A stretch of DNA of 64,000 bases from the NCBI RefSeq assembly GCF_003334405.1, contig NZ_QOWM01000009.1. One strand, given 5' to 3'. This stretch comes from Escherichia coli (GTDB taxonomy: Bacteria; Pseudomonadota; Gammaproteobacteria; Enterobacterales; Enterobacteriaceae). The notes beneath the pieces were generated by a model. The model searched no databases and was not told where the DNA came from. It was given only the letters and a program-made list of their open reading frames with translations. Shown here one piece after another: positions 499 to 56,731 of this stretch (within the stretch, counting starts at the first letter, position 1; every line of letters begins with the position of its first letter). Position numbers and translations under genes: made by a program.

Positions 499-3302
<2,804 letters not shown>

Positions 3303-3306
<4 letters not shown>

Positions 3307-4247
3307 GCGTGCGCTCCTTCATGACGACGAATGCGCGGGTCCAGCGCGGCGTTGAGCAAATCGACAATCAAATTACAGACCACAAAAACCACCACCATCA
3401 TCAGCGTAAAGCACTGGATCACCGGATAGTCACGGTTAAAAATCGCCGACACCGCATAGCGCCCGACGCCCGGCCAGGCAAAGATGTTTTCGATAATCAT
3501 CGTCCCGCCAATCAGTTCGCCGATATGCATCCCCACGGCGGTGATCATCGGCAGCGAGGCATTGCGCAGGATGTGGCGACGTTCGGTCTGTTTGTCGTTC
3601 AGGCCGCGCAGACGCGCCCAGGTGACGTGACGCTGACCGGCGACGTCCAGCATACTGGCGCGCAGTAAACGCGCGTTAATCGCCAGCGACATAAAGGCAA
3701 TGGAAACCGCAGGCAAAATGATGTGCTGCCAGCCGCCGTAACCCATCGCGGGTAGCCATTGCAGATACACCGAAAACGCCATCACCAGTAAAAACGCCAG
3801 CCAGAAGTTAGGCATCGACACGCCAAGAAACGCGATGAAACGTACGGCGAAATCCGGCAGACGGTCGCGATGGCGCGCCGCCCAGATACCGAGCGGTACG
3901 GAAGTGAGCAGAATTAATACCAGCGCCGCACCTGCAAGTTCCAGCGTGGCGGGCAGGAAGTTCAGCATATCGTCCAGTACCGGGCGTTGGCTGGCGAATG
4001 AGATACCAAAGTCAAGATGCAGCGCCTTCCACAACCAGGTGCCGTACTGGACGTACAGCGGCTGATCCAGTCCCAGCATGGTGCGGGTAGAGGCCAGCAT
4101 CTCCGGCGTCGGCGGCAGGTTAGACAGACGCAAATAATCGAGCGCCGGGTCGCCGGTACCGAGGCGCAGCATCAGAAAAATGATCACCGAGGCGGCGAGC
4201 ACCATCGGGATCAGCAGCAGAAAGCGGCGTAATACGTAACGCAACAT
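3303..4247 (-). CDS. nikB: Nickel ABC transporter permease
   Basis: 314 aa multi-TM permease; operon position between nikA and nikC. Confidence 0.9.
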
Positions 4248-5821
4248 TAAGGTTTCACCGGTTTAATCTGTTCGAACGGAATTTCGGTGGCGATCGGCGC
4301 GTAGGGGATGTTACCCAGCTCCGGTTTTGATACCACCATCATTGAGATGTAACTGATAGGCAGATAAACCGCCTCGTCATGCAGACGGGTCAGAATGTCG
4401 CGATACAGCGCCTGACGTTGCGTTTCGTCATGGGTCGCCAGCACTTCGCCGATCTCTTTATCAATCAGCGGTTTGTCGGCTAATCCTTGCTGTGCCTGGA
4501 AGTCAGCGTGTGACGGTACGCGCATTGAACTGAGGAAGGCGTGTGGATCATATGGCGCGCCCCAGGTGCGGTGGAAAATCATGCCAAAACGACCGTCGCG
4601 CTGACGAGCATAGATACTGCTCTCTTCTTCGCCAATCAGCGAGACATCTGCGCCAATCTGGCGCATATCAGCCTGAATGATTTCCGCCATCGATTTGCTT
4701 AACGCATCGGTGCCGATGAACGAAAGTTCAATGCGCAGCGGCTGACCATTTTTCTCGCGGATGTCTTTGCCCGCAGGCAGCGTCCAACCGGCTTTTTCCA
4801 GCAACGCTTTCGCTTTTTGCGGATCGTACTGGCTCGGTTTCAGGCCGAGGTTGGCGTAGGGCACAGAAGGGGCAAACAGGGTGTCGGCGACCTGCTGGGT
4901 GCCATACAACGCGTTATCAATCAGCGATTTTTTGTTTACCGCGTAATTAAGAGCTTCACGTACTGCCAGCTCGTTGGTGGGGGCTTTGGCGGTATTGAGC
5001 GCCAGCATCACGGTTTCGATCGGCTGTGACAGTTGGGTGTGGTAAGCCGGATTCTGGCTAAAGCGGGCGAAGGTATCGAGCGGTAATAACCCTTCGTTTC
5101 CGTACAGCAGGTCGATATCGCCAGTTTCAAACGCCACCGCGCGGGTAGTCGGGTCCGGGATGACGTTAAAGGTGATCTTTTTAATCGCTGGCTTTTCGCC
5201 CCAGTAGTTTTCGTTACGGACGAAGACATCGTACTGATTCAGTTTCGATTCCTGCAAAATCCACGGTCCGGTGCCAATCGGCGCTTTAATTCCGTTCATG
5301 GTTTCATGGTTTTTAAACTGCGAGGGAGCGATAAAACGGAAAGGACGGGGCAGGGCCAGTTCTTGCAGGAAAGGATAGTAGGCGCTTTTCAGGGTAATTT
5401 GCAGCTCTGTTTTACTGAGTGCTTTAACATCAACAATCTGGTTTGCCAGCTCCAGCCAGGCGTGACGTTGACGGTTATCGAGCACTGCGCGGAAGTTTTC
5501 TGCCGCCGCCTCGGCATCGAACGGTTCACCGTTGGAGAATTTCACGTCATCACGCAGGGTGAAGGTCCAGGTTTTACCATCTTCTGAATGAGTCCAGCTT
5601 TTTGCCAGCCACGGGATCACCGAACCGTCTGCCTGATATTTCACCAATGGTTCATAAACCATGCTCTGGGCGAACATCTGGTTAGGCGTGTAAAGGTGCG
5701 GGTTTAGTGGCCCGACATTCACCGGCCAGGCGGTGGTGATTTCATCTGGTGCAGCGGCATGGACGATAAAAGACGCACAAGCCAGCAGCGCAAATAGAGT
5801 GCGGCGGAGTGTGGAGAGCAT
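4247..5821 (-). CDS. nikA: Periplasmic nickel-binding protein
   Basis: 524 aa; N-terminal signal peptide [24 protein letters not shown]; family 5 solute-binding protein fold; NikR operator immediately upstream. Confidence 0.93.
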
Positions 5822-5858
5822 GGTAACCCCAATGGATTAAAATAGATGGCGGAAATAA

Positions 5859-5886
5859 GTATGACGATTTTAAGTATTCGTCATAC
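5859..5886. promoter_or_regulatory. NikR operator (GTATGA-N16-TCATAC dyad) in nikA promoter
   Basis: Exact GTATGA cgattttaagtattcg TCATAC read at 5859-5886, 38-65 bp upstream of nikA start codon. Confidence 0.8.
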
Positions 5887-5931
5887 TGATTACCTGTTCT
5901 GGATCAATAGATGGGCAGTCGGGTGGGCGGA

Positions 5932-6519
5932 TCAGTTAACTGAATCGATCCATTGCACACTGTCGGCGGTGAGCGTAAAGGGAGTAGGGGTGCAGATCGC
6001 AAGGCTTAAATTTTCAAGCTGACAATGGCTGACTGACAGCGAGGAGTGATAGGTGCTGTCTACGCTGACGATTTGCCAGGCGCTGCCGCCACGCTGTTTA
6101 ACGATGGCTTCTTTGCGCGTCCAGATGCGCCAGAACATTTCCAGTTGCTGATCAGGATGCACGGCGTCCATCTCAGCGTGTTCCCCGAGGCTGAATACGG
6201 CGTTCGCCAGCCAGCGCCAGTTGGCGCGCGGGCGAATCACTTCGATATCGCAGCCGACTTCGCCTTCATCACTCAACAGCAGGGCGATATCGTCACCGCT
6301 ATGGCTTAAGTTGAACCATAGCGGCATTTCCGGCGCAAATGCAGGTTTGCCTTGTTCGCCATAGATGATCTCCGGTAGCGGGGAAAGCGTGTGCGAAAGC
6401 AATGCACGCCCCGCCAGCCAGCGTTCGCGTCGTGGACCTTGCGGTGCTTGCTCGCGTAAACCCGGTGGCAGTGGAGCTGCGCTTAAGGTCGAAACTTTCC
6501 CCAGAACTATCCGATACAT
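5932..6519 (-). CDS. acpT: 4'-phosphopantetheinyl transferase (holo-ACP synthase family)
   Basis: 195 aa ORF; PPTase-like sequence; K-12 position between nikA and yhhT. Confidence 0.85.
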   Translation of the reverse strand: MYRIVLGKVSTLSAAPLPPGLREQAPQGPRRERWLAGRALLSHTLSPLPEIIYGEQGKPAFAPEMPLWFNLSHSGDDIALLLSDEGEVGCDIEVIRPRANWRWLANAVFSLGEHAEMDAVHPDQQLEMFWRIWTRKEAIVKQRGGSAWQIVSVDSTYHSSLSVSHCQLENLSLAICTPTPFTLTADSVQWIDSVN

Positions 6520-6573
6520 ATCAGGGCCAACGTTTAATGGAAAATGAAAGTGCGTATCGTATCACTTGTCGCC

Positions 6574-7623
6574 TCATCCCGGTAACCGACTTTTCGGTCT
6601 GCCCGGCCCCAGTAAAATCGCCAGTTTGCTACCGCCTTTGGTGGTTTCCATCCAGATTTTACACACGCTGGTTAATGGCACCGAAAGTAGCATCCCTACC
6701 GGGCCGAGCAGCCATCCCCAAATTAACAATGAAAGAAATACCACCATGGTGGACATCCCCAGGCGATGGCCCATCATCCGTGGTTCTAAAATATTGCCGA
6801 TGACCATATGGACCACTAAAAACAATGCGCCGACCAGAATACATTCGTAAACACCATTAAACAGCAGCACCTGAATCATTGGCGGTACGGCGGAAATTAC
6901 CGCGCCGATATTGGGCACGTAGTTGAGCAAAAACGCCAGTACTGCCCACATCAGCGCAAACTGCACCCCCATCAGCTCCAGCCCCAGCCAGACGATGACA
7001 CCTGTCCATAAACTGAGTAGCGTCTTCAATGCAAGATAGTGCGAAACGCCTTTAAGTGCGCGGTGTAATCCCGCGATGTGAATCTGTGGATTATTCAGCG
7101 CAAAACGCATTTTGTAAGGGACGTGGCGCACTTCAAACAGCATAAAAACTACGGTCATCACCAGCAAAAGCACGCTCGCCATTGCCCCGGAAAGCCCGGT
7201 CATTAGCGCTGTGGTGAAGGTAACCACTTTTTCCGAGTCCATCCGCTGCAGCATTCGCTCCGGCGACATATGCAAATTAAGAAAAGGCAACATCTCCTGC
7301 AATTTAAAAAGTTTGCGCGTCAGCTCCTTATTAAACTTCGGCAGCATAGAGATAAATTCGTTAAACGATGCCGCCAGTACGCCGACCAGCGCGGTTAGTG
7401 CGATCAGCATCACCACCACTACAATCGTAATGGCAACGGGGCGTTGTACTCCCCGACGAATAAACCAGGTGACGAGCGGGTTGAGGACGATGGCAAAAAA
7501 CAGCGCCAGTAACAGCTGCACAATGATATCTGCCGCTGCGTGAATGCCCGCGAGGATCACTACCAGCGAGGCCAGCTTGAGCAGAATGTGCATGCCCGTT
7601 TTATCGGGTTGAGGGGTTTCCAT
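6574..7623 (-). CDS. yhhT: Inner membrane protein, AI-2E/PerM-type transporter family
   Basis: Hydrophobic multi-TM ORF; start taken at METPQPDKTG (349 aa) rather than longest ORF (376 aa). Confidence 0.8.
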   Translation of the reverse strand: METPQPDKTGMHILLKLASLVVILAGIHAAADIIVQLLLALFFAIVLNPLVTWFIRRGVQRPVAITIVVVVMLIALTALVGVLAASFNEFISMLPKFNKELTRKLFKLQEMLPFLNLHMSPERMLQRMDSEKVVTFTTALMTGLSGAMASVLLLVMTVVFMLFEVRHVPYKMRFALNNPQIHIAGLHRALKGVSHYLALKTLLSLWTGVIVWLGLELMGVQFALMWAVLAFLLNYVPNIGAVISAVPPMIQVLLFNGVYECILVGALFLVVHMVIGNILEPRMMGHRLGMSTMVVFLSLLIWGWLLGPVGMLLSVPLTSVCKIWMETTKGGSKLAILLGPGRPKSRLPG

Positions 7624-52111: not shown

Positions 52112-54577
<2,466 letters not shown>

Positions 54578-54593
54578 GTTCACCAATAAATAG

Positions 54594-54620
54594 AACGGGG
54601 CTAAAGGGTCCCGTTTTTTT
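54594..54620 (+). terminator. Rho-independent terminator of glg operon
   Basis: aacggggctaaagggtcccgtt hairpin followed by ttttttt. Confidence 0.7.
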
Positions 54621-54705
54621 CCGCCATCATTTCGGAAAAGTGTCCAGAAGGGGCAAGGGGACTCGGGGAGTATAATTTCACCATTCAAAAAGAATGGAAA
54701 GAATA

Positions 54706-54987
54706 ATGCAAAACAGAAAATGGATTTTGACCTCGCTGGTAATGACTTTTTTCGGCATCCCCATACTGGCGCAATTTTTGGCGGTGGTTATTGCCATGCT
54801 GGGTGTCGGACTTGCCGGTATTATTGAAGTTTGTAATATCCTTATCACGCCAACAATTTACCTTCTGCTCAAAATTTTTATGCTGGCGCTGGGCGCATTA
54901 ATGCTATTTTTCTCGGGGCGAGTGGGGAACGTGCCTGAGTTTTGTTACGTTGGGTATGATGGCGTGGGCTTTGCGGTAATTCCCTGA
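54706..54987 (+). CDS. yzgL: Small hydrophobic membrane protein
   Basis: ORF of 93-97 aa (start ambiguous, taken at MQNRKWILTSLV); two predicted TM helices; symbol from K-12 position between glgP and glpD, moderately sure. Confidence 0.55.
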   Translation: MQNRKWILTSLVMTFFGIPILAQFLAVVIAMLGVGLAGIIEVCNILITPTIYLLLKIFMLALGALMLFFSGRVGNVPEFCYVGYDGVGFAVIP

Positions 54988-55029
54988 ATTAAAAAGTAGG
55001 TTAGATTTTTGACAAAGTGCGCTTTGTTC

Positions 55030-55130
55030 ATGCCGGATGCGACGTGAACGTCTTATCTGGCCTACAAGACCATGCAAATTCAATATATTGCATAAACCAC
55101 GTAGGCCTGATAAGCGTAGCGCATCAGGCA
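55030..55130. repeat. BIME: two inverted REP elements between yzgL and glpD
   Basis: atgccggatgcgacgtgaacgtcttatctggcctaca ... gtaggcctgataagcgtagcgcatcaggca. Confidence 0.8.
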
Positions 55131-55192
55131 GTTTTGTGTTTGTCATCAGTCTCAGGCCAGATTGAAATCTGACCTGATCACCTTACGTTAAT

Positions 55193-56698
55193 TTACGACG
55201 CCAGCGATAACCTCTGCTGCGTATACTCCACCAGCCACTGACTCACACGAGATTGTTGATCCGCATTTAGCCACATGCCTTGTTTTGTGCGACGCCACAG
55301 GGCGTCGTCGGCGCGGCGGACCCATTCGTGATCCACCAGGTATTTCAGCTCCGCTTCGTAGAACTCATGACCGAAATCTTCCCCGAGATCGCTTACCGTT
55401 CCCGCATTGCCGAGCAGCAGCTCGCTGTTGCTGCCGTAAGTGCGAGCGTAATGACGCGCCAGCGATTCAGTCAGGAACGGATAGCGGCGGCGCAGGCGAG
55501 CGGCATAATCGTCGCGGTCGCCTTCAATGGCGCCACCCGGTAGCACACTCTCTTTCGTCCATGCCGGGCCAATACCCTGATAATACGGCGTTAGTTTTTC
55601 CAGCGCATGTTCCGCCAGTTTTCGGTAGGTGGTCAGCTTACCGCCGAATACCGACAGCAGCGGTGCTTTGCCATTTTCATCATGAATATCAAGGGTGTAA
55701 TCACGGGTAATAGCCTGCGGCGAGTCGGACTCATCATCACACAGCGGACGCACACCGGAGTAGGTCCAGACGATATCGTCACGGCTTAACTGCTTTTTAA
55801 AGTGCGTGTTATACACATTCAGCAGGTAATTGATTTCACTCTCTTCAATCTTCACCGCTTTCGGATCGCCTTTGTACTCGACATCGGTAGTGCCGATGAT
55901 GGAAAACTCGTCCATCCACGGGATCACGAACACAATACGTTTATCTTCGTTTTGCAGAATGTAGGCTTGCTTCTGGGTATGCACGCGCGGCACCACAATA
56001 TGGCTGCCTTTGATCAGGCGAATGCCATAAGGCGAAGGCAGATGCATCCCGTCGTCGAAGAACTGTTTCACCCACGGGCCGGTGGCGTTAACCAAGCCGC
56101 GCGCTTGCCAGCTATATTTTTTGCCGGTATCGATATCTTCCGCTTCCACAATCCACAGGCCGTTTTCGCGGCGAGCAGAGGTGGCGCGAGTCCGAGTAAG
56201 CACTTCGCCGCCTTTACGCACCACCATCTGGGCGTTGGCGAGTACCAGACGGGCGTCGTCTACCCAACAGTCAGAATATTCGAATCCGCGCTTAATTTCC
56301 GGTTTTAACACTGAATTTGCGCCAAAACGCAAACCAGTTGATCCCGGCAAGCTGGTGCGTTTACCCAGATGATCGTACATAAACAGACCAATGCGAATCA
56401 TCCACGCCGGGCGCAGATGCGGACGATGTGGCAGGCGAAAACGCATCGGGAAGGCGATATGCGGGGCCATTTTCAGCAGCACTTCACGTTCAGCCAGCGC
56501 CTCGCTGACCAGGCGGAATTCATAGTGCTCAAGGTAGCGCAGGCCACCGTGAATGAGTTTTGAACTGGCGGAAGAGGTCGCGCAAGCGAGATCCTGCGCC
56601 TCCAGCATCAGCACGGATAAACCGCGTCCAGCGGCGTCTGCCGCGATACCAGCACCATTGATGCCGCCCCCTATCACAATCAGATCTTTGGTTTCCAT
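55193..56698 (-). CDS. glpD: Aerobic glycerol-3-phosphate dehydrogenase (FAD)
   Basis: Start at METKDLIVIGGGINGAGIA (501 aa); FAD-binding GxGxxG. Confidence 0.95.
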   Translation of the reverse strand: METKDLIVIGGGINGAGIAADAAGRGLSVLMLEAQDLACATSSASSKLIHGGLRYLEHYEFRLVSEALAEREVLLKMAPHIAFPMRFRLPHRPHLRPAWMIRIGLFMYDHLGKRTSLPGSTGLRFGANSVLKPEIKRGFEYSDCWVDDARLVLANAQMVVRKGGEVLTRTRATSARRENGLWIVEAEDIDTGKKYSWQARGLVNATGPWVKQFFDDGMHLPSPYGIRLIKGSHIVVPRVHTQKQAYILQNEDKRIVFVIPWMDEFSIIGTTDVEYKGDPKAVKIEESEINYLLNVYNTHFKKQLSRDDIVWTYSGVRPLCDDESDSPQAITRDYTLDIHDENGKAPLLSVFGGKLTTYRKLAEHALEKLTPYYQGIGPAWTKESVLPGGAIEGDRDDYAARLRRRYPFLTESLARHYARTYGSNSELLLGNAGTVSDLGEDFGHEFYEAELKYLVDHEWVRRADDALWRRTKQGMWLNADQQSRVSQWLVEYTQQRLSLAS

Positions 56699-56731
56699 GC
56701 TGCCCTCATTCACTTTCGTTAAAGCTCATAA

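Follow-up and report, generated by a model that had tools for sequence, protein, structure and literature searches.

The stretch of Escherichia coli DNA analysed here (64,000 nucleotides, hereafter the window) contains a short hydrophobic open reading frame (ORF), located at 54694-54987 on the plus strand between glgP (52130-54577, plus strand) and glpD (55193-56713, minus strand, with its 3′ end at 55193). This raises the question of whether the ORF is the gene for a small membrane protein or the remnant of something larger. It encodes 97 amino acids from the ATG at 54694 or 93 from the ATG at 54706, the latter being the only one of the two starts that is kept in K. oxytoca. A sequence-only reading of the window had described a 93-97-residue, yzgL-like protein with two hydrophobic helices, lying alone between the glgP terminator and a BIME, and had regarded it as probably a real stand-alone small membrane protein. 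The description was accurate. Both ATG codons are present, residues 10 to 77 of the product are strongly hydrophobic in a Kyte-Doolittle analysis, and the ORF is bordered by a hairpin at 54592-54621 and a REP pair at 55032-55132. In the AlphaFold2 model of the intact homologue described below, the corresponding segment comprises helix 1 (residues 2-44) and most of helix 2 (50-78). The interpretation as a gene in its own right did not hold, as the ORF consists of the 5′ 15% of a 502-aa gene followed by 20 codons that belong to another gene (gene 3 below) and are read out of frame.

The name fits the database record. The sequence is 99.8-100% identical to many RefSeq loci labelled ‘yzgL: protein YzgL’, including one strain K-12 record, and these loci display a layout identical to that of the window, with glgP, yzgL on the glgP strand and the 3′ end of glpD. 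At the ORF itself RefSeq places the label yzgL or ‘phosphate ABC transporter substrate-binding protein’, designated pseudo, with the PGAP note ‘incomplete; missing C-terminus’. The remnant matched no NCBIfam family. The window ORF shares with K-12 yzgL its position between glgP and glpD, its sequence, its 93-aa reading and its truncation, and there is no difference between the two. It is thus very likely that the ORF corresponds to yzgL (b3427), a pseudogene of E. coli K-12, and that it represents the scar of a deletion. As the yzgL pseudogene is already annotated the locus is a known one; what is new here is its exact anatomy, comprising a 2,852-bp deletion, a GAGTG repeat and an out-of-frame tail derived from gene 3.

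The distribution of the two forms of the locus was assessed with a megablast search in which window positions 54560-55200 (641 nt) were compared with 5,426 complete E. coli genomes. The whole 641-nt region was matched in 1,261 of these, indicating that about 23% carry the deletion allele. In 18 of 30 evenly spaced rows of the ranking (about 60% of the records) the match was limited to 54560-54927, and a full-length PstS-family CDS lay beneath the match in all 18. Estimated from these 30 rows, about 60% of the 5,426 genomes contain the intact allele, in which the start used by yzgL opens a 502-aa protein.

Comparison with intact alleles located the breakpoints. On the left, window positions 54401-54927 are 97.3-97.5% identical to BL21(DE3) (locus L006, 1130-1656) and to CX05 (L001, 3842-4368), where the 502-aa CDS is annotated, and the residues of the remnant match the N-terminus of the 502-aa protein. 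On the right, blastn aligned window positions 54920 to about 55400 with O157 (L005, 7712-8191) and BL21 (L006, 4500-4982) at 94-95% identity. The left and right BL21 alignments overlap on GAGTGGGG, that is, on GAGTG(GGG), and the picture in O157 is identical. The deletion junction, mapped through these blastn breakpoints, is therefore the surviving copy of a GAGTG direct repeat at 54920-54924 (plus strand). In BL21 the left site reads ...GGGGCGAGTG|TGGGCGG (1648-1652) and the right site ...TTGAGTGAGTG|GGGAACG (4500-4504). Relative to BL21(DE3), 2,852 bp are absent from the window, corresponding to one GAGTG copy and the stretch up to the other copy. The right site of SCU-301 is GTGGGGCGAGTGGGT; a parental allele with a BL21-like left site and a SCU-301-like right site would have had a repeat of 10 nt, GGGGCGAGTG.

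The composition of the ORF follows from this junction. Codons 1-77 of 97 (54694-54924, plus strand, with the conserved start ATG at 54706) are the 5′ remnant of the gene for a membrane-anchored PstS-like protein (gene 1), the last of them being the GTG at 54922-54924. Positions 54925-54979 (plus strand) are the 3′ end of the gene for a 200-aa membrane protein (gene 3), which has its own TAA at 54977-54979 and ends ...EWGTCLSFVTLGMMAWALR*. The ORF reads this segment in a different frame, such that codons 78-97 (GNVPEFCYVGYDGVGFAVIP) represent the last 60 nt of gene 3 in another frame. Direct reading of the sequence shows that the ORF then continues beyond the gene 3 stop (54980-54987, plus strand) to its own TGA at 54985-54987. 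The PGAP note, the 502-aa homologue with the same start and the mapped deletion junction together establish the truncated status of the window ORF.

These data point to a simple history. The ancestral glgP-glpD locus resembled those of BL21(DE3) and O157:H7, with genes 1, 2 and 3 followed by the REP pair. A deletion of 2,852 bp, bounded by short GAGTG direct repeats that may have been GGGGCGAGTG, fused gene 1 at codon 77 to gene 3 at codon 182 without keeping the frame. The outcome was an ORF of 93-97 codons, in which the last 20 residues form a nonsense tail extending 8 nt beyond the gene 3 stop. The mechanism was probably microhomology-mediated, through slippage or illegitimate recombination. 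The earlier statement that the ORF has no operon partner is thus correct for the locus as it stands, although the lone state is the result of a deletion, as the missing 2,852 bp took the partner genes with them. The lone hydrophobic ORF of K-12 is, in this light, a deletion scar and not an orphan small-protein gene. More generally, comparison of strains of the same species exposes at once the truncated genes behind candidate small ORFs.

The same junction was seen in at least two haplotype contexts. In the O166:H15 strain (L007) the deletion allele has SCU-301-type (L008) variants on both flanks, while the deletion alleles of K-12 and L003 resemble BL21-type alleles (window positions 54880-54960 compared). 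Either the deletion arose more than once at the GGGGCGAGTG repeat, or the junction was transferred between backgrounds by recombination.

The long form of the gene is found well beyond E. coli. Full-length homologues with 35-55% identity occur in Klebsiella, Salmonella, Intestinirhabdus, Phytobacter, Budviciaceae and Rahnella, and these other genera carry only the form of roughly 500 aa. In K. oxytoca and Salmonella the gene 1 orthologue lies between glgP and glpD, as it does in E. coli, and the long form is therefore ancestral at this site. The orthologue is followed in both by a 234-aa gene, the product of which is 56% identical to that of the 236-aa gene of CX05-type E. coli loci (type A below). 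Across the loci compared, gene 1 thus appears to be the constant element and its partner genes the variable one. Two observations concern these partners: the K. oxytoca copy of the 234-aa protein shows a faint match to DUF4279, and the 234-aa gene is followed by a gene whose product, of about 140 aa, contains a YbbD_head domain (PF26610; L010, 8539-8958, and L009, 8235-8657). In the Salmonella locus (L009, GCA_019339485.1) the called membrane-anchored PstS-like gene at 6001-7524 is preceded by a second copy (4472-5985), which lies directly after glgP and was not called. The frame of this second copy appears to shift near its 3′ end, and it may be another pseudogene.

Conservation was also the point on which the sequence-only reading proposed that a real gene could be recognized, and here the frame is not conserved in its short form: in relatives it runs for approximately 500 codons. 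A search with the 97-aa ORF returned 118 short homologues of 54-170 aa, all of the named ones being from Escherichia or Shigella except for one partial sequence labelled Proteus, and found no stand-alone short form outside Escherichia/Shigella.

The strongest competing explanation is that the ORF is nonetheless a genuine gene for a small membrane protein, whose two-helix product of 93-97 aa is made and has a function of its own, either as the sequence-only reading proposed or newly acquired by the remnant. The ORF is indeed open in all four deletion-allele sequences read (the window, L002, L003 and L007), which include a haplotype with ~5% divergence; the upstream motif, the TATAAT box and the conserved ATG are all retained; the product contains two long hydrophobic helices; and an array signal responds to Cpx induction, a Cpx microarray study listing yzgL at −2.0 (a two-fold change), which implies a detectable yzgL transcript. 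Against this, an open ORF of such length across ~5% divergence is unremarkable, the tail is another gene read out of frame, stand-alone homologues were not found outside Escherichia/Shigella, and only about 23% of E. coli genomes carry the allele. The remnant is, furthermore, disrupted in one genome, isolate F829, where IS1 is inserted in its 5′ part (L013, 549-1246). Both substitutions that distinguish K-12 from all of the intact alleles examined, A31V and N59K, are non-synonymous (2/2), and N59K places a lysine in helix 2. K-12 strains with reporter cassettes at yzgL have also been built and used, one paper describing the ‘yzgL pseudogene locus’ as a site for reporter insertion and a second reporting a reporter integrated at yzgL. 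Ratios of dN/dS among the deletion alleles range from 0.27 to 0.97, although these values say nothing about selection on the remnant, because the divergence between the alleles tracks polymorphism among intact alleles on both flanks. Characterized bacterial small membrane proteins are comparable to the yzgL ORF in size range and in hydrophobic, helical character. They are, however, kept as short genes with their own stop, whereas the yzgL ORF is short through deletion and stops within foreign, out-of-frame sequence. Taken together, these data render a functional small-protein gene improbable.

A deletion scar may still be expressed. The region upstream of gene 1 is intact, and the remnant may therefore still give rise to a transcript, and perhaps to a hydrophobic peptide of two helices. 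The supplements of one Ribo-seq paper make no mention of yzgL or b3427. The ancestral function has presumably been lost, as the binding domain is missing entirely, together with four of the six helices. It would be surprising if a peptide of ~93 aa were expressed from the gene 1 upstream region, inserted into the inner membrane and exerted some effect in K-12-type strains. Were this the case, the peptide might, for example, cause mild envelope stress or interfere with a membrane complex, and such an effect could explain why the ORF has stayed open on at least two haplotype backgrounds.

The upstream region retained from the ancestral gene (54629-54676, plus strand) contains the motif ATTTCGGAAAAGTG at 54629-54642 and a −10-like TATAAT at 54671-54676; a recognizable −35 element is absent from it. 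The motif, which includes the inverted repeat TTTC-G-GAAA, lies 28 nt upstream of the −10-like TATAAT/TATACT. Both elements are kept in BL21, O157, SCU-301 and K. oxytoca (as TATACT in the latter) and are also present in Salmonella L009; the corresponding stretches are 4410-4460 in L009 and about 5920-5975 in L010 (Klebsiella). The motif ATTTCGGAAAAGTG could be an activator site for the ancestral gene, and the region as a whole may function as a promoter. A simple promoter/terminator scan found no promoter for the ORF and did not flag the glgP terminator, and folding and cross-genus alignment were used in its place. In this way the glgP intrinsic terminator was located at 54592-54621 (plus strand), where an 11-bp hairpin (RNA fold −15.1 kcal/mol) is followed by a U-run; the hairpin and T-run are invariant among the E. 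coli alleles and K. oxytoca. Opposite the 3′ half of glgP, the minus strand carries an ORF of 371 codons (53573-54688) that ends shortly upstream of yzgL; it is most likely a shadow of the glgP reading frame.

A second explanation reverses the direction of change, such that the K-12 arrangement would be ancestral and the long genes found elsewhere would be an island inserted into a small gene. The GC content of the cluster (0.44-0.48) is below that of its flanks, and glgP-glpD content varies between strains, both of which would suit an island. The O157 O-island 133 gene Z4789, which we take from locus-tag order as a possible member of the intact cluster, would suit it too. However, full-length orthologues occupy the same position in K. 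oxytoca and Salmonella, the tail of the ORF shares homology with the 3′ end of gene 3 but reads it in the wrong frame, and the junction lies at a direct repeat that is found at both sites in intact alleles. The syntenic orthologues, wrong-frame tail and direct-repeat junction all agree with a deletion and not with an insertion, and the insertion reading is highly improbable. The last alternative, an ORF that arose by chance in intergenic DNA without any coding ancestry, would accommodate the low GC content of the ORF (0.452 vs 0.527 for the window) and its length, which by itself is within chance expectation (shuffled window sequence yields ~0.67 ORFs per kb with a length of 97 aa or more). 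It is refuted by the homology of the ORF to a real gene, codons 1-77 having 97% DNA identity to the beginning of an annotated gene of 502 aa with orthologues in other genera, and its probability is negligible.

The point of further interest is the intact cluster, which lies outside the window, is present in most E. coli and is syntenic in Klebsiella and Salmonella, and which encodes an unstudied membrane-tethered PstS-like protein. The product of intact gene 1 contains a PF12849 (PBP_like_2) domain at residues 247-482 (E 3.8e-30), and its sequence matches PstS structures (4q8r, E 2.5e-18). An AlphaFold2 model based on 46 homologues (mean pLDDT 85.9) displays six N-terminal helices (residues 2-44, 50-78, 84-111, 121-141, 146-166 and 174-203). 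The fold that follows these helices was matched by Foldseek to the phosphate-binding proteins 4gd5 and 1twy (E about 1e-14). Gene 1 therefore resembles the PstS family in that it shares the PF12849 domain and its model superposes on PstS structures. It differs in that its score against TIGR02136, 121.9 bits, is below the cutoff of 206.6, in its fusion to a six-helix region and in the lack of adjacent PstCAB-type permease/ATPase genes; ABC permease/ATPase genes are absent from the cluster in CX05, O157, BL21, SCU-301, K. oxytoca and Salmonella. The protein is accordingly described here as PstS-like, not as a demonstrated PstS, with putative phosphate binding. The window ORF keeps none of the binding domain, retaining the first 77 residues of the membrane domain only.

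The other two genes of the intact cluster are related to the two halves of gene 1. Gene 2 encodes a lipoprotein-type paralogue of the gene 1 binding domain, with which it shares 58% identity. For gene 3, an hhalign profile-profile comparison showed homology to the membrane domain of gene 1 (probability 99.1%, E 1.7e-18), while BLASTP showed no match between the two. In these type-B clusters (L006, BL21(DE3), 1431-4559; also L005 and L008) a fused module is followed by both of its domains as separate genes. The intact locus may thus be viewed, from its predicted proteins, as an uncharacterized Enterobacteriaceae module in which six-helix and PstS-like domains occur as a fused and a split paralogous pair with no transporter genes. 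Among other origins considered for the intact cluster, a defence function was rejected on the basis of zero PADLOC matches, and a phage origin because the PHROGs match was limited to the PstS-like gene 2. Pfam returned no match for the 200-aa protein of gene 3 or the 236-aa protein of type A; the latter shows a weak N-terminal match to NF007301.

Downstream of the scar, the BIME recognized in the sequence-only reading consists of two REP units, which were found by a regular expression on the two REP arms. REP unit 1 (55032-55066, plus strand) matches the REP consensus and forms a hairpin of −17.0 kcal/mol (z −3.2). REP unit 2 (55101-55132, minus strand) is in the inverted orientation and was identified from its fold and its match to the REP consensus. 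The consensus is repeated in the window at about 20993, 26890 and 28527, and the REP stretch has a median of 20 matching places per E. coli genome. The REP pair is also present downstream of gene 3 in O157 and BL21, and is ancestral to the type-B locus, predating the deletion. An sRNA at the locus was considered and rejected, as Rfam gave only sub-threshold matches, to the REP-derived naRNA4 and ES036. Directly downstream of the glpD stop lies a further hairpin (55148-55192, minus strand; −17.7 kcal/mol, z −4.07, with 0 of 200 shuffles as stable), which is probably the glpD terminator or a stabilizer.

The interval between glgP and glpD is occupied in several ways within E. coli, and is a hotspot of gene-content variation; it has been called ‘hotspot A’ (PMC13185298). 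In type A, represented by CX05, the 502-aa gene is followed by genes encoding 236, 255 and 201 aa, without REP units. Type B, present in O157:H7, BL21(DE3) and SCU-301, comprises gene 1 (502 aa), gene 2 (330 aa), gene 3 (200 aa), the same REP pair as in the window and glpD. The third arrangement is the K-12 deletion allele, as in the window. In the fourth, observed in isolate A3176 (L004, 1-6022), a chaperone-usher fimbrial operon takes the place of the PstS-like cluster, and beyond it lie a ‘hypothetical protein’ fragment with a frameshift, the REP pair and glpD.
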